Source of the DNA: Octopus vulgaris
Taxonomy: Eukaryota
Length of the DNA stretch: 64,000 nucleotides
Direction of reading: 5' to 3'
Assembly: GCA_951406725.2 (NCBI GenBank)
Contig: OX597825.1
Coordinates: 58,404,001 to 58,468,000 of the forward strand
The position numbers and the translations under genes were made by a program. This document shows, in pieces, positions 19,720-54,014 of this stretch; position 1 is the stretch's first letter; every line of letters starts with the position of its first letter. The notes below the pieces were generated by a model. It was not told the origin of the DNA and made no database searches. It worked only from the letters and a program-made list of their open reading frames with translations.

Positions 19720-19865
19720 GTTCTCCTATGTTTCCGACGAAGAGCTCCGCTCGAAACGTCAAACCCTCCTTCTTCCCTTCTTTCCTGAGCGTCCAATAAT
19801 ACTCTATTTGTTCCACCTCCTTGCGTTGTTGTGTTTTTTTTGTTTTTGTTTTCTTGTTTGGATTA

Positions 19866-20543: not shown

Positions 20544-21831
20544 TAAGGTCATCCCATAAGTTCTGTTCGATTTTACCTTTTTAAAATTGAATGAAATTTA
20601 ATAGTATTTAAGAATGTCTAATGGAATTTTAAATTATTTTTATGCATTTGTTGTGTACATTTAAACTAATTAAATATTATATTACAGAATAATAGAATTT
20701 AAATTTCTTCCATTAAAACCCTTTCTAACATGGAAGTATCCAAAGAGCATTTATGGCACATAATGCTTTATGAGTACAAAAAAGAAAACTCTGGAGCTGA
20801 AGCGACTCGAAACATACACTTAGTTTATGGGAAAGAATGCTTGAATGAAAGAACTTGCAGAAGATGGTTTGCAAAACTTAGAAGTGCAGATTTCAGCCTT
20901 GAAGATGAAGAACGAACAGGACGTCCAGTTGAGTTTGATGATAAGCTCCTTGAGGCATTACTTGAAGAAAATCCTGCATTATCAGTTGAAGAATTGGCAA
21001 TAAAGCTTAGTTCAAACCATACAACTGTTCATCGTCATCTTCAACAACTTGGAAAAGTTCATAAACTTGGAAAATGGGTGCTTCATGAATTGTCCGAAAG
21101 CAACCGCAAATCCCGAGTTGACATCTGCCCTTCTCTCCATTCTCGCGAACTCATTTCACCCTTTTTGTATAGACTTGTGACTGGTGACGAAAAATGGATC
21201 TTCTATCGAAATGTTAAACGTCGTAAACAGTGGCTTGGTAAAAGGGAAAATGCTCAACCACAACCGAGAAGGGAACTTCATGGGAAAAAGGTTCTTCTCT
21301 CTATCTGGTGGGATTGCAAAGGAGTAATTCACTTTGAATTGTTACCACCTAATGCAACAATCAATGCTCAAGTCTACTGTCAGCAATTAGAACGTTTGAA
21401 CCAAGCTTTGAAGAAAACAAGACCCGCTTTAGTGAATCGAAAAGGAATGATGCTTCATCAGGACAATGCGTGACCCCACACTGCAAAGGTCACATCACAG
21501 AAGATCAAAGGGCTTGGTTTGGAAAAAATTCCTCATCCATCCTATTCTCCCGACCTTGCTCCTTCAAACTACCATTTGTTTCATAGTTTACACATTCATC
21601 TGTGGGGCATAACTTTCGCAAGCCAGGAGGAGATTGAAACTGACATCAGAGTTCTTCTCTTTGAAACCAAAAGAGTTTTACATTGATGGGATTAAAAAGT
21701 TTGGAAATAGATGGAAGGAAGTCATAGATAATCAGGGAAAGTACATTGATGATTAAATTTCAATTAAATATAACATTTCATCACTTGTTTTCTTTATGGA
21801 AAATTCGGACAGAACTTATGGGATGACCTGA
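20544..21831 (+). mobile_element. Full-length mariner (DD34D) transposon, copy 1, 1288 bp
   Basis: 27-bp TIRs TAAGGTCATCCCATAAGTTCTGTTCGA / TCGGACAGAACTTATGGGATGACCTGA; TA target duplication. Confidence 0.95.
20730..21756 (+). pseudogene. Mariner transposase pseudogene (copy 1)
   Basis: HTH region, WVLHEL, VTGDEKW and HQDNA motifs, then a CGA>TGA stop at 21471-73; SPDLAPSN (third catalytic D>N); 2-bp deletion near 21645. Confidence 0.95.
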
Positions 21832-23984: not shown

Positions 23985-24182
23985 TCTCGTGAGCACCGCC
24001 AGCAATTTCTTTTCCTCTGTCTTCCCTTCTCGCGATCTTTCCTTCTCCTTTGTTTCCGACGAAGAGCTCCGCTCGAAACGTTAAACCCTCCTTCTTCCCT
24101 TCTTTCCTGAGCGTCGAATAATACTTCATTTGTTCCACGTCCTCGCGTTGCTGTGTTTTTTTGTGTTTTCCTGTTTGGATTA

Positions 24183-24187
<5 letters not shown>
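23985..24187 (+). mobile_element. Penelope-like pLTR remnant with minimal hammerhead-like motif (24052-24086)
   Basis: GTTT-CCGACGA-A-GAGC(TCC)GCTC-GAAAC-GTT-AAAC; (TA)n on both sides; inserted in the Tigger 3' region. Confidence 0.6.
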
Positions 24188-24245
<58 letters not shown>

Positions 24246-25467: not shown

Positions 25468-26067
25468 ATGTTATGTACAATTTTCACTAAGAAACTCATA
25501 CTAGAAGTGCCGAGTAGGGATTGCAACGATTTCGTTTATCCATCGATTGTATCGTTCCTGCTATCAGTGCCGAGTAGTATTGATGCTAACAGGCAATGCC
25601 CGGGTTCTTTAGTGCACACTATAGGACAATTTTTGTTTTGTTATCTATACAGCTACCCCGCCAAACCGTGTACAACTGTACCCACCCCATACACACACCA
25701 ATTGTTTTGTTTTACTAAACGCTAAAGCAGAGGTTCCCAACCGTATTTTTCTTCTCCCACAGACCGGGGAATCACGTGAATAACAGAACAGATTAAGGTG
25801 CATAATATATATTTCAATTATTACATCATCATCGTCAGTATCATCATCATCGTCAACATTTAACATCCGTTTTCCATGCTGGGATGGGTTGGACGGCTCG
25901 ACAGGAACTAGTAAGGCCTGGGGTGGCACCATTTACCATAGTCCGTTTTGGCTTGGTTTCTACGGCTGGATGCCCTTCCTGACGCACACCACTTCACAGA
26001 GTGTACTGGGTGCTTTTTACATGGCACCAGTACCAATTACATATATAATACATACGTACATACATAC

Positions 26068-26117
<50 letters not shown>

Positions 26118-26399
26118 ACAATTGAGGGTAAAATTAATTAATTAATCAATTTCACCAAGTGTTCAGTATGTAAAAGGACCATTTAAGGCGAATTCAAAAT
26201 ATTACATTATATAATTAGGGCTTAGTAAAATAAATTACTTTGCCACATACTGAACTTAGTAGAAATAGCAGCCAAAAAATTTTTTTTTTTCTTAGCATTT
26301 CTACTACTTAAAGAAAATTTCTCTCAGATAATGTTTACTCCAGACAGCTCACGAAGGTTTGGGGGTAAATACAGAAAAATATCACAAGTACATAGATCG

Positions 26400-26462
26400 T
26401 TTGAGTACGTCAACGTTTCAAGATTAGCCAAATAAAATCAGCATTTCTTTCGTCAGCTCAAA
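26400..26462 (-). ncRNA. Type I hammerhead ribozyme (predicted)
   Basis: Reverse complement of the 27155-27217 motif. Confidence 0.75.
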
Positions 26463-27154
26463 ATTTCTTAATTTGGATTTGGAAACACTAAAAAGAAGGA
26501 ACTTTACCTATCAGCGAACTTGTCGCTTCAGATGAACCACTCCAACTAACAGTGTCTACAAATTCAAAATGCGCAGGCGTAAAATTCTGCACTCCCCATT
26601 CCACCCACGTGGTCTATCTAGCAAACATTATATTTTAACCGCGAGAACCGAGGCAGTATGACCGAGAGAAATGAATTATAATATCAACAATTGAGGGTAA
26701 AATTAATTAATTAATCAATTTCACCAAGTGTTCAGTACGTAAAAGGACCATTTAAGGCGAATTCAAAATATTACATTATATAATTAGGGCTTAGTAAAAT
26801 AAATTACTTTGCCACATACTGAACTTAGTAGAAATAGCAGCCAAAAAAATTTTTTTTTCTTAGCATTTCTACTATTTAAATTAATTAAATTAATTCTACT
26901 AATTAATTAATTAATTTTACCCTCAATTGTTGATATTATAATTCATTTCTCTCGGTCATACTGCCTCGGTTCTCGCGGTTAAAATATAATGTTTGCTAGA
27001 TAGACCACGTGGGTGGAATGGGGAGTGCAGAATTTTACGCCTGCGCATTTTGAATTTGTTGACACTGTTAGTTGGAGTGGTTCATCTGAAGCGACAAGTT
27101 CGCTGATAGGTAAAGTTCCTTCTTTTTAGTGTTTCCAAATCCAAATTAAGAAAT

Positions 27155-27217
27155 TTTGAGCTGACGAAAGAAATGCTGATTTTATTTGGCTAATCTTGAA
27201 ACGTTGACGTACTCAAA
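27155..27217 (+). ncRNA. Type I hammerhead ribozyme (predicted)
   Basis: Stem I TTTGAG/CTCAAA; core CTGACGA; stem II AAGA...TCTT (extended by GCTGA/TTGGC); GAAA; stem III ACG-TTGA-CGT; cleavage triplet GTA (cut after 27211). Confidence 0.8.
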
Positions 27218-27477
27218 CGATCTATGTACTTGTGATATTTTTCTGTATTTACCCCCAAACCTTCGTGAGCCGTCTGGAGTAAACATTATCTGAGAGAAAT
27301 TTTTTTAAGTAGTAGAAATGCTAAGAAAAAAAAATTTTTTTGGCTGCTATTTCTACTAAGTTCAGTATGTGGCAAAGTAATTTATTTTACTAAGCCCTAA
27401 TTATATATATATATATATATATATATACACTCACACACTCACACACATGCACCTATATATATACATATATATATGCA

Positions 27478-31782: not shown

Positions 31783-33066
31783 TCAGGTCATCTCATAAGT
31801 TCTGTCCGAATTTTCCATAAAGAAAACAAGTGATGAAATGTTATATTTAATTGAAATTTAATCATCAATGTACCTTCCCTGATTATCTATGACTTCCTTC
31901 CATCTATTTACAAGCTTTTTAATCCCATCAATGTAAAACTCTTTTGGTTTCAAAGAGAACTCTGAAATGTCAGTTTCAACCTCCTCCTGGCTTACGAAAC
32001 CTATATCCACCAAATAACTCTGTAAACTACGAAACAAATAGTAGTCTGAAGGAGCAAGGTCAGGAGAATAAAGTGGATGGGGAATTTTTTCCCAACCAAG
32101 CCCTTTGATCTTCTGTGATGTGATCTTTGCAGTGTGGGGTCGCGCATTATCCTGATGAAGCATCACTCCTTTTCGATTCACTAAAGCGGGTCTTGTTTTC
32201 TTCAAAGCTTGGTTCAAACGTTCTAATTGCTGACAATAGACTTGCGCATTGATTGTTGCATTAGGTGGTAACACTTCAAAGTGAATTACTCCTTTGCAAT
32301 CCCACCAGATAGAGAGAAGAACCTTTTTCCCATGAAGTTCTCTTCTCAGTTGTGGTTGAGCTTTTCTCCTTTTACCAAGCCACTGTTTACGACGTTTAAC
32401 ATTTCGATAGAAGATCCATTTTTCGTCACCAGTCACAAGTCTATCCAAAAAGAGTGAAATGAGTTCGCGAGAATGGAGAGAAGAGCAGATGTCAACTCGG
32501 TATTTACGGTTGCTTTCGGACAATTCATGAAGCACCCATTTTCCAAGTTTATGAACTTTTCCAAGTTGTTGAAGATGACGATGAACATCTGTATGGTTTG
32601 AACTAAGCTTTATTGACAATTCTTCAACTGATAATGCAGGATTTTCTTCAAGTAATGCCTCAAAGAGCTTATCATCAAACTCAACTGGACGTCCTGTTCG
32701 ATCTTCATCTTCAAGGCTGAAATCTCCACTTCTGAATTTTGCAAACCAACTTCTGCAAGTTCTTTCATTCAAGCATTCTTTCCCATAAACTGAGTGTATG
32801 TTTCGAGTTGCTTCGGCTGCAAAGTTTCCTTTTTTTGTACTCAAAGCATTATGTGCCTCAAATGCTCTTTGGATACTTCCATGTTAGAAAGGGTTTTAAT
32901 GGAAGAAATTTAAATTCTATTATTCTTGTAAAATAATATTTAATTAGTTTAAATGTACACAAATGCATAAAAATAATTTTAAATTCCATTAGACATTCTA
33001 AAATACTATTAAATTTCATTCAATTTTAAAAAGGTAAAATCGGACAGAACTTATGGGATGACCTGA
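31783..33066 (-). mobile_element. Full-length mariner (DD34D) transposon, copy 2, 1284 bp
   Basis: TA-TCAGGTCATCTCATAAGTTCTGTCCGA ... TCGGACAGAACTTATGGGATGACCTGA-TA; same family as copy 1. Confidence 0.95.
31858..32882 (-). pseudogene. Mariner transposase, N-terminally frameshifted (copy 2)
   Basis: The true ATG is at 32882 (MEVSKEHLRHIML). A 2-bp deletion and +1 A near 32830-32845 break the frame. The downstream 328-codon frame is open with VTGDEKW, HQDNARPH and YSPDLAPSDY (D,D34D intact). Confidence 0.93.
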
Positions 33067-38632: not shown

Positions 38633-39396
38633 GTACTACTACGACTACTACTACGACTACGACAACGTCATCATAGACCATCATGATACATTGTGGGACA
38701 TGGACGTCTTGAAGTGATCTCTCAAAAATTATTTTGAGTGATCACTTCTTGGAGTGAAATAACAATCCAAGATTTTCCTCAAACCCCACTTTACCGTATT
38801 ACAAAATAAATAAATAAAATAAAATAAAATAATTTGGATTGTCATAACTGGAAAGCTAAGACTGTTCAGTGACTAACAACAAGAAATTTGTTAAAAATAT
38901 CGGAAACCACCGGGAATGTCCGAAGTGAGACAATCGGAATTTGTTAGCAATTAGCTGTGACAGGTGGACCTCGACTTTGTAATCGCCTTGTCACCAGCAT
39001 TCCAACACACACACACACACAGATCTCTTTATCTCTTCTTTCTGAGTTATTGGAATTTTCTTTCTTATTCTTCCTCGCTTCACAAGTTCATTTTTCTTTC
39101 TATTTCTCAATCGCTGTTTACGTTTTGTCTCTTTCTTTCCTTGTCATTTGTCCATTCCTACAATCTCTCTCTTCCAATTCGTCTTACCTTCTTTCTCATA
39201 CCTTCTCACCCCCACCTCATTCTGTTAGTTTCACTTTCATTATCATTTTATCCCACTTCTTCCCTGCACCGAGCTCCCTTATCTCATATCCCATTCTCAC
39301 TTCTCTTTCTTTCGTTGCCACTCCTTTCTCTCCCTGTTTATATATTCGTTTCTCCTCTTCCTTTTCAATTCAATGCGTTGTCATTCTCTTTCGATG

Positions 39397-39449
<53 letters not shown>

Positions 39450-39451
39450 AC

Positions 39452-39596
<145 letters not shown>

Positions 39597-39628
39597 CCTA
39601 TCTCTCTCTCTATCTATCTATCTATCTA

Positions 39629-39661
<33 letters not shown>

Positions 39662-39767
39662 ATCCATCCATATATCTATCTGTTCATCCATTCATCCGTC
39701 TGTCTGTCTATCTGTCTGTCTTTGCCTATCTATCTATTTTTCTATCTATCTATCTATCTATCTATCT

Positions 39768-40586
39768 GGCTCGAGAAACACGGGGCCGACCTGCCCGAGA
39801 TGCGGTCAGAGCGACGAAACCGTTCTGCACGCACTCGTTCAGTGTCCAACAATTTCCGACCTGTGGGCTTATGTCGAACAACTGCTGTCACGTGTGGGAC
39901 GAGTCGGTTTATCAGCTGAGTCTATCGTCAATATTGTCACGCCTCCTTCCTTCAAACGGGAAGGAAGAGCTATTTTCATCATCCTTGTGGCTATGGCGAA
40001 AGAATGTATCTGGTGGACGCGTCTGAAAGGATTGGAGACAAACACTTTCCTCTCTGGTCAATCTCTCATCAACTTCTTCAAGTACCACTTGAAAAGGAAA
40101 GTGAGAGTAGAGAGGCAAGTTTTGTCTAGCGAATGTTTTAAAAAAAGATGGGTGAATGTAGCAAGAATGGCACGTATGAATGACGAAGCCACCTTGAGCA
40201 TAGTCCTATGAACCCAGAAATCGAAAACAGAGAGTTGCTTATTTGCAAAAAGAAATATAAAATGTGACATCATTGACCGAGGTTACCGTGGTCTTTTCCG
40301 TAGGCTTTTCTTTGCACGGGTAAACCTCACCTGTCCTCCCCTTTACACTTCATATTGACATTTCTGTGATAACGATCCCTATTGATCAATTTTTTTCCTC
40401 CCCCCTTTTTTTTTAAACCCCCCTTTTTTTTGTCCTCTTTCTCTCCTTTTACGATCCCTTTTGTATCGAAACCCCCCCTTCCTTTTTTTTTTTTTTTTTT
40501 TTTTTTCTTTCTTAAACCTTCAAAAGAAAAGCTCTACCTTGTAATTTGTTCTATCTGTGTGCAGCCCTGTGTGGCTAATAAAGAAA
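39768..40586 (+). mobile_element. 5'-truncated L1/Tx1-clade LINE (CCHC zinc-finger C-terminus + 3' UTR) in (TATC)n
   Basis: Open frame [19 protein letters not shown]...AKECIWWTR...FKKRW to a stop at 40211; C/T-rich UTR ending AATAAAGAAA; (TATC)n on both sides. Confidence 0.88.
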
Positions 40587-45409: not shown

Positions 45410-45995
45410 GTGACCTCGTCTGTACCACTAGCGATTTTTTCCCCCTGTCTTCCCTTCTCGGGATCTTTCCTTCTCCTATGTTTCCGACAAAGAACTCCGC
45501 TCGAAATGTCAAACCCTCCTTCTTCCCTTCTTTCCTGAGCGTCCAATAATACTTTATTTGTTCCACGTCCTTGCGTTGTTTTTTTGTTTTTGTTTTCTTG
45601 TTTGGATTAACTATATATATATATATATATATATACATATATGTGTGGGATTGGTGATGCAAGCAGGAAAATAGAATTCAACACATGAGTGCATTATATG
45701 TTTTTATTAATAAACAGCTGAACTTACAGAGTGACTCAGGGGCTGAGAGAGTTTTGTGCTGCTTTTTCCTGTTGTCGTTTCTCTCCATCTGCTCTTGCTT
45801 GCCTCTCTCTCCTTCCCTTTCTTTAAACCTTTTTTTATTTTCTCTCCCTGTTTATTTCTGTGTTCCTTTCTGTCAAAGAGCATAGGCTTGAAATGTAAAA
45901 GACTTTCTCACTTCCTGTTCTGACCATTAAACTAATACATCTGTTTGTTGTTTACATACCCGTCTTTGCCTTTTGTTTTTTTGTAAATTCTCACT
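45410..45995 (+). mobile_element. Two adjacent (TA)n-bounded pLTR-like remnants with decayed hammerhead motifs (45480-45514, 45866-45901)
   Basis: Homologous to 23985-24187 and 16678-16826 respectively. Confidence 0.55.
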
Positions 45996-53861: not shown

Positions 53862-54014
53862 TAATAATATAGGGTGAAATTAATTAATTTGGAATAATCA
53901 TTAATTTCACCAAGTAGATTTCGGCATCTAAAAGCCCCATTCGAGGAAGGTTTAAGTAATACTAAGTAATTAAGGGTTTAGCAACGATTTGCCTCACCAC
54001 ATGCCACACATGCA

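Follow-up and report, generated by a model that had tools for sequence, protein, structure and literature searches.

The element described here is one young copy of a protein-free repeat with a predicted self-cutting RNA, located in a 64,000-nucleotide stretch of the Octopus vulgaris genome (contig OX597825.1, here C12, positions 58,404,001 to 58,468,000; hereafter the window). The family to which it belongs behaves as a non-autonomous element of Penelope type rather than as an autonomous one: no Penelope ORF was matched in the window, and none was found in a pLTR position in 168 element records. Its copies carry two fixed 3′ ends, distributed almost strictly one to each inverted arm, and we are confident that they represent a non-autonomous retroelement mobilized by Penelope machinery. 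The complete explanation, namely that a non-coding hammerhead repeat, parasitic on Penelope, is likely copied from a small RNA circle and inserted from two sites, is the one towards which we lean.

Structure of the element and of its relatives

A reading made from the letters alone (the sequence-only reading) had described a 569-bp unit, a partial direct repeat of about 197 bp, an AT-rich junction and an inverted copy of about 505 bp embedded in (TA)n, and every one of its coordinates was confirmed (table 1). The two arms are joined 5′ to 5′, i.e. head-to-head, with TA tracts adjoining both 3′ ends, and the window copy is a typical ‘ab’ insertion, composed of one arm ending at site a and one ending at site b. 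Comparison of the junction filler with the unit gave no match. The unit is non-coding (GC 0.337): as noticed from the sequence, it holds no long frame, no ORF of at least 150 aa overlapping the window element and stops being present throughout all six frames of the unit.

Table 1. Features of the element in the window. Unit positions (u) are those of the reverse complement of 26112-26680, i.e. the ribozyme-sense strand.
Feature	Position in window	Strand	Identity or basis
Left (TA)n-type target tract	26041..26115	.	Tandem Repeats Finder and sequence reading
Full 569-nt unit u1-569, left arm; 3′ end at 26112 = fixed site b	26112..26680	-	
Conserved 3′ module u375-569: hairpins, then sites a and b	26112..26306	-	subfamily conservation
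Predicted long rod u49-375, ribozyme close to tip	26306..26632	-	fold prediction
Type I hammerhead motif, left arm, identical to that of the right arm; predicted cut 26406/26405	26400..26462	-	
5′-truncated upstream tandem unit u369-569 (partial direct repeat)	26681..26880	-	98%
A/T-rich filler, about 21 nt, at the head-to-head junction; short echoes of both arm ends	26881..26901	.	sequence reading
Inverted right arm, u535-569 (26902-26936) then u1-473 (26937-27407); 3′ end at about 27407 = fixed site a	26902..27407	+	99%
Type I hammerhead motif, right arm; predicted cut 27211/27212	27155..27217	+	
Right (TA)n target tract	27402..27427	.	Tandem Repeats Finder

The two 63-nt hammerhead motifs of the window are identical in sequence and, read by hand, each consists of a 6-bp stem I, CUGACGA, a bulged stem II, GAAA, a 3-bp stem III and GUA, which upholds the claim of a complete type I hammerhead motif in each orientation. 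The proposed check against hammerhead models turned out negative, no hammerhead family of Rfam being matched at the gathering score or at E ≤ 10. Taken in isolation, the 63-mer folds no better than shuffled sequences (z −0.88) and its minimum-energy fold buries the core, although the active fold costs only 0.4 kcal/mol more (−9.2 versus −9.6 kcal/mol). Stem III is a 10-nt self-complementary stretch, for which pairing between two units is predicted at −10.8 kcal/mol; in tandem repeats, motifs with a short palindromic helix III are described as functioning in dimeric form (Cervera and de la Pena 2014, PMC4209133).

A pattern made of the core plus stem III matched the genome 366 times, against none for the reversed control, so that the hammerhead pattern occurs above chance, and the motif recurs at unit spacing within arrays. 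Moreover, an intact core is found inside different stems in two more distant families, with units of 562 and approximately 602 nt, which were reached through the 3′ module with no use of the ribozyme, indicating that the ribozyme is maintained. This core, kept while stems I-III changed, argues for selection on the predicted cleavage. A core-conservation figure of 1 change in 1,756 is circular, most loci having been chosen by their core, and was not used. Hammerhead-like motifs unrelated to the family were also met, some as inverted pairs (L035, L038/L065, L039, L137, L139, L140, L143, L241 and L245), and the genome holds many hammerhead-like families.

Folded as a circle, the 569-nt unit is predicted to be unusually stable (z −7.0 versus 60 shuffles, 66% of positions paired), with −154 kcal/mol for the sense and −112 kcal/mol for the antisense strand. 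Three further units treated likewise gave z −6.7, −8.8 and −6.9 (25 shuffles each), and all four folded families are more stable than their own antisense strands. Among 102 consensus pairs, 14 change on both sides (essentially between two lineages), and the pairs of the rod predicted from the window are kept in sisters at 20/41, 21/39, 18/37 and 19/43, versus approximately 14 expected (p 0.01-0.14), paired positions diverging as quickly as unpaired ones. We regard the covariation of this putative rod as real but modest.

The recent activity suggested by the sequence-only reading is borne out by the 366 exact ribozyme matches in the 2.8-Gb host genome and by a family identity of approximately 98%. 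Indeed, a DNA search yielded 1,988 candidates, and the 40 that were scored are all 97-100% identical across the unit. Copies range from monomers to 12-mers on many contigs, the units lying head-to-tail with nothing between them. A sister pattern (2,314 matches versus 4 for its control) revealed subfamilies with units of 545-564 nt, which align with the window unit along its whole length at 73-79%; their arrays include 11 identical 546-nt units (the ends of this array not both readable), nine nearly identical 545-nt units and, more generally, near-perfect 10-12-mers. The clade thus delimited has units of 545-569 nt, and colinearity over the full unit holds among subfamilies 67-79% identical. 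A tail motif gave 3,949 genome matches versus none for the control.

The more distant relatives were reached by searches with two distant relatives of the 3′ module. The 562-nt family (L255-L268) is 67% identical over most of the unit, with the same core in re-sequenced stems and the same two 3′ ends, whereas the family of approximately 602 nt (L240-L253, e.g. L240:1095-1697) shares only u388-564, at about 68%, and has a different hammerhead with a long stem II. A short 3′ piece of the latter lies in the window itself (53863-53984, minus strand), which also contains two mariner-type transposase frames (20703-21473, plus strand, and 31858-32883, minus strand; Pfam Transposase_1 and HTH_48) and a weak zf-RVT match below the cut-off (38961-40211, plus strand).

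Insertion footprint and template

The insertion footprint was established on the loci of the first 100 of the 366 listed matches (contigs C1-C3 and the start of C4), i.e. 71 records, two listed C4 loci being absent. The removal of L079, a near-identical duplicate of L077 together with its flanks, and of L186, which gave no match at 85%, left 69 loci. Two 3′ sites were defined, site a by a bin at u470-490 and site b by a bin at u565-569, placed at u473-482 and u569, respectively. From the 115 arms of these loci, 56 end at site a, 49 at site b and 10 elsewhere. The two sites are approximately 90 nt apart, for a tail of 87-96 nt, and about 98 of the 105 a or b ends adjoin (TA)n, as counted by eye. 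Target-site duplications are unreadable inside TA tracts. The 5′ ends, for their part, are scattered over the unit. The proposed examination of copies for circular permutation thus led to the opposite result: with 105 of 115 arms ending at two fixed sites, the copies are not free circular permutations, and this reading was rejected.

Head-to-head pairs were found in 40 of the 69 loci, for a total of 41 pairs: 32 ab, one bb, no aa and eight with one eroded end. The ab combination therefore makes up 32 of the 33 scorable pairs (p 4e-9 versus an even draw), and no tail-to-tail pair was reported among the 69 loci. A second set of 41 sister or tail-selected loci, with seven mini-element loci left out and a bias towards b arms caused by the tail selection, gave ab for 25 of 28 pairs, and its lone bb is cut by the locus edge. 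On the 5′ side of four apparent single-arm insertions (L097, L098, L156 and L166), 6-12 nt of a b arm are still present, which implies that two-ended priming is commoner than blast shows.

This pattern of two fixed ends, with one arm per site, is the Penelope ‘tail’ footprint. Partial tandems, an inverted 5′-truncated copy, a tail of 30-40 bp often at one end and a bias towards microsatellites are given as hallmarks of Penelope-like elements (Craig 2021, PMC8557442), and head-to-head junctions with the tail on one of the inverted pLTRs are described by Arkhipova (2013, PMC3846280). In vitro, purified Penelope protein is reported to cut and extend both strands of AT-rich DNA, and to start at two internal RNA sites which delimit the tail, a dimer being predicted (Frangieh 2024, PMC11167929). 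An ORF-bearing Penelope-like family of the octopus genome itself (781 aa, RT and GIY-YIG) likewise ends at two 3′ positions within (TA)n, separated by 40 nt, one of each being present in inverted pieces at locus L043. The sequence-only reading of a recently active, non-coding hammerhead retroelement with a Penelope-type tandem and inverted structure is supported.

As the source of the paired arms, classical twin priming on a single linear RNA was discarded: 5′ ends would then break at a constant point close to site a, whereas they are scattered. By eye, no pile-up of arm lengths was evident at 87 or 482 nt, the mark expected of a collision between two polymerases.

A ribozyme-less mini element of approximately 225 bp was observed among the tail-motif loci. 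It is two-armed, with a b arm of u498-569 and an a arm of u341-482, and occurs at L215 (1866-2085 and 2266-2485), L217:3343-3562, L222:538-750, L228:498-717, L230:3318-3536 and L235:504-728, and partially in L220. Its junction and flanking microsatellite are the same in 7 of 35 tail-motif loci, which indicates that one old insertion product was itself amplified as a unit.

The relationship between the arms was analysed on 85 loci (the 69 footprint loci and 16 from the DNA search). Divergence per 100 sites is 0.77 between opposite arms and 0.62 between tandem units, versus 1.99 between different loci, and 14 variants present in at most two loci are common to both arms. A comparison at 28 family polymorphisms gave the same state in 67 of 74 cases for arms and in 100 of 110 for tandem units, versus 13% for different loci. 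Among the 17 disagreements, 11 fall in two chimeric loci, with two haplotypes between arms in L165 and between tandem units in L170; these chimeras may reflect template switching or two RNAs in one event, and one template per insertion is thus not an absolute rule. In all probability, both arms are copied from one template lineage. Concordance speaks for one lineage rather than strictly one molecule, as the same picture could arise from gene conversion or from a pair of transcripts made at an unsampled donor locus.

Concerning the nature of this template, a cut linear monomer would stop the cDNA at u276. Of 114 5′ ends, just 2 fall within 5 nt of this cut, a number that chance alone would give (approximately 2 expected), and the sequence at the cut is unaltered in 132 of the 138 pieces that cross it. 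A ribozyme-cut linear monomer was rejected on the absence of a pile-up of 5′ ends at the cut which, together with the seamless cut sites, points to either a ligated circle or an uncut multimer. The sequence-only reading had ascribed the window's greater-than-unit-length, circularly permuted copy to reverse transcription around a circle. The length does fit, and arms beyond unit length are frequent (23 of 56 a arms exceed 482 nt and 19 of 49 b arms exceed 569 nt, in a sample conditioned on the ribozyme); however, an uncut multimer accounts for them equally, so that a longer-than-unit copy alone is no evidence for a circle, and the permutation gives way to the fixed 3′ ends.

A ribozyme-made circle seems to us slightly the better supposition for the template. 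The same two-site Penelope-type insertion could also have used an uncut linear multimeric transcript, the hammerhead being a passenger or acting on 5′ ends or late, a scheme that we consider possible but rather unlikely. It accounts for the seamless cut sites and for the lack of a pile-up of 5′ ends no less than a circle would, long arrays are available as donors, and the predicted monomer fold buries the hammerhead core. Furthermore, the ribozyme is reported to be dispensable for insertion in vitro, where uncut RNA was the main substrate, ribozyme mutants retained normal insertion and the cut site was neither the start nor the end of any read (Frangieh 2024, PMC11167929), and cleavage was obtained for only 1 of 9 predicted dimers by Li, Clavereau and Pollet (2026, bioRxiv 10.64898/2026.07.22.740005). 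Nevertheless, 5′ truncation of an uncut multimer should shorten arrays at each generation, yet arms exceed unit length and near-perfect 10-12-mers exist. The intact core where all stems have changed also speaks for selection on cleavage, and the related retrozymes of mussel, coral and axolotl are described as accumulating as circles (PMC7229834).

The unit is present in 19 of 24 listed public runs, 14 of these 19 being only guessed to be RNA. These are assembled contigs, in which a circle junction is identical to tandem genomic sequence and ends, strand and circle are unreadable. On the ribozyme strand, A>G changes are biased in two of four guessed-RNA runs (16 versus 2 and 7 versus 1) and unbiased in the other two; in a second comparison, one of three runs is biased (6 versus 1), and a large, probably genomic run gave 4 versus 1. 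We conclude nothing on RNA editing from these figures. A fixing of RNA edits in genomic copies was not supported, shared variants being A>G in 23 cases versus T>C in 40, and rare shared variants 7 versus 7.

The conserved 3′ module and the partner enzyme

Conservation is strongly uneven along the unit. When the window unit is set against two sisters, identity reaches 89-97% over u401-569 but 61-71% over u1-200, and this 3′ module is also the portion common to the 562-nt and approximately 602-nt families. Its predicted consensus fold includes one hairpin, a long stem within which site a lies, and another hairpin that precedes site b; of its 37 pairs, 5 are altered at both positions, with a covariation energy term of about zero. 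In all three families, sites a and b each lie, by eye, 5-20 nt of A/U-rich sequence past a hairpin closed by GG...CC, which suggests that two like sites may serve two enzyme subunits. Conserved across families with different ribozymes, the module of approximately 190 nt is likely the region at which a reverse transcriptase docks and starts.

A Penelope enzyme acting as partner is what we infer from the footprint, and the search for a Penelope RT sharing the ends of the unit, as had been proposed, produced no candidate in the portion sampled. Scoring 150 of 6,136 candidates from a GIY-YIG family search gave 70 Penelope-ORF records, of Neptune-like families, and a second Penelope-like protein query gave 42 records of a very young 6.2-kb family, some of the records overlapping. 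Neither the unit (blastn) nor the module profile matched the pLTRs of these 70 and 42 records, and the unit showed no homology to the Neptune-like and 6.2-kb families sampled, the former from this small part of the 6,136 candidates. Matches of unit or module near Penelope-ORF records are separate small insertions, none at the 3′ ends of those elements. No Penelope ORF was matched in the window, nor in 35 stretches around tail-motif matches of contig C1 (32 without and three with a listed ribozyme nearby). Distant relatives of the module were also tried as a path to the partner, and led to further non-coding ribozyme families rather than to ORFs.

These searches bear on a second alternative, according to which the units are solo pLTRs or 3′ fragments of an unsampled ORF-bearing Penelope-like element. 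In its favour, Penelope-like elements ordinarily show a partial tandem, an inverted 5′-truncated copy, a tail and a preference for microsatellites (PMC8557442, PMC3846280), and only part of the Penelope families of this genome was sampled (150 of 6,136 GIY-YIG candidates). The sequence-only reading had itself considered that the element would be an ordinary pLTR if all copies were simply termini of an ORF-bearing Penelope element, with fixed ends and no circular RNA. Fixed ends are present but do not by themselves make it an ordinary pLTR, and the unit is not the terminus of an ORF-bearing element at any sampled locus: pieces of a Penelope ORF lie near 8 of 168 element records (some of them overlapping), none in an ORF-then-pLTR arrangement (six read, two judged by coordinates). 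In addition, as many as 12 units adjoin one another directly, subfamilies at 67-79% identity align colinearly from one end of the unit to the other, and the motif in the ORF-bearing 6.2-kb family is short, of minimal type and unrelated in sequence. We therefore hold solo pLTRs to be improbable.

Weakest of all, and very improbable in our opinion, is an assembly artefact, or fold-back or satellite amplification at the DNA level without an RNA stage: near-perfect inverted repeats in (TA)n are indeed error-prone in assembly, but dozens of loci whose flanks are unrelated show the identical build, 32 of 33 independent pairs end at the same two fixed sites although their junctions and flanks differ, private substitutions distinguish the arms, and fold stability specific to one strand is not expected from DNA palindromes.

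The ORF-bearing families met during these searches deserve a brief description. The 6.2-kb Penelope-like family (L269-L310, e.g. L299-L301) forms very young tandem units with a 3′ region of approximately 3 kb and a (TA)n target, and has many identical open frames of 884-1008 aa; its hammerhead motif has a CCGACGA core, and the copies read have only one 3′ end. Pieces related to its 3′ part occur in the window at 19727-19845, 24039-24190 and 45467-45610. The 781-aa family, young as well (L061:430-5672, L063 and L043), is one that we take to be Neptune-like from a linker Cys motif. It possesses a second, upstream open frame of 359-378 aa and tandem repeats in the 3′ region, and a motif scan detected no hammerhead in its pLTR. 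Finally, at L160:576-2223, the diverged end of a Penelope ORF is joined approximately 40 nt past its stop, with no TA spacer, to an antisense arm of the element, a junction that is probably a later deletion between neighbours.

Proposed cycle and comparison with known systems

The cycle that we favour, built on a circular template, would comprise four steps. Tandem copies would be transcribed, and their hammerheads, which the self-complementary stem III likely brings together in pairs, would cut out a monomer of approximately 569 nt. Ligation would turn this monomer into a circle, where the ribozyme would be kept silent by an alternative fold. The 3′ module would then be bound by a Penelope-like RT/GIY-YIG protein supplied from another locus, probably in dimeric form, and this protein would cut both strands of a (TA)n tract. 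In a third step, of which the footprint is observed and the enzymology presumed, a single template would be primed twice, by one DNA end at site b (u569) and by the second DNA end at site a (u473-482), the cDNAs running over a variable distance, often past unit length. The two cDNAs would finally be joined 5′ to 5′, giving the head-to-head insertion with one a and one b end that is seen as the product, whereas extension of one end only would give a single arm.

A broader reading is more tentative, and we would call it doubtful at present. The module of approximately 190 nt, with its two hairpin-plus-template sites, might be portable, letting a dimeric Penelope RT prime both ends of a break on one circle, and circles of 545-569, 562 and approximately 602 nt might have kept or swapped it. 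If so, there would be a lineage of modular circular parasites that no longer resemble the pLTR of the enzyme they use, and the long-puzzling inverted pLTR and tail of Penelope would be explained by the two-armed product. Should the module work in trans, it would constitute a cargo-independent signal for two-ended insertion.

The family bears on two questions, namely which enzyme spreads animal retrozymes, and how Penelope makes head-to-head inverted copies and tails, a point called unresolved in PMC8557442. Short, young and abundant, it provides footprints that can be counted (one arm per site, one haplotype and no stop at the ribozyme cut), and its 3′ module is a small candidate RNA substrate for Penelope protein in vitro.

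The closest parallels among known systems are the animal non-LTR retrozymes (PMC7229834; bioRxiv 10.64898/2026.07.22.740005), every sequence-level feature of which is found in the element, with cleavage and circles predicted. As described for these, it is a low-GC (34%) non-coding tandem with a type I hammerhead per unit, dispersed as monomers to multimers, predicted to be highly self-paired and co-occurring with Penelope-like elements. The unit of 545-569 nt is longer than the 170-400-nt retrozyme circles shown experimentally, and within the 51-972 bp given by Li et al. Cleavage and circles have been shown for published animal retrozymes, whereas here cleavage is predicted and the circle presumed. 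Conversely, the fixed ends and two-armed insertions observed here do not figure in the accounts of animal retrozymes considered (PMC7229834; Li et al. 2026). Xenopus retrozymes are reported to be homologous to pLTRs (Li et al. 2026), whereas the octopus unit has no homology to the partners sampled.

With EN+ Penelope-like elements (PMC8557442, PMC3846280, PMC11167929), the family shares partial tandems, a head-to-head 5′-truncated inverted copy, an optional tail, microsatellite targeting and a hammerhead in the repeat. Unlike them, it has no ORF, and its tail measures approximately 87-96 nt instead of 30-40. The tail of EN+ elements is described as ‘often’ or ‘optionally’ at one end, whereas a near-strict rule of one arm each (32 of 33) applies here, and stems I and III are full where a minimal ribozyme is given as typical of metazoan pLTRs (PMC4209133). 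Chlamys elements, e.g. MRC1 (PMC8557442), are similarly non-coding Penelope-type parasites with pLTRs and multicopy head-to-tail insertions; however, they are algal, generally resemble the autonomous family at their 3′ end and belong to a clade described as mostly without canonical hammerheads.

Our literature search retrieved no description of the family or of the one-arm-per-site rule, although the supplements of PMC4209133, PMC8557442, PMC13282606 and the preprint may list the family or its partner; the main text of the 2026 octopus repeat annotation, as far as consulted, mentions neither ribozyme nor hammerhead (PMC13282606). A Penelope origin of animal retrozymes was proposed earlier (PMC7229834) and is reported to have phylogenetic support in vertebrates and frogs (bioRxiv 10.64898/2026.07.22.740005). 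Retrozymes as a kind of element are already known from these two studies, and the octopus family is a further member.
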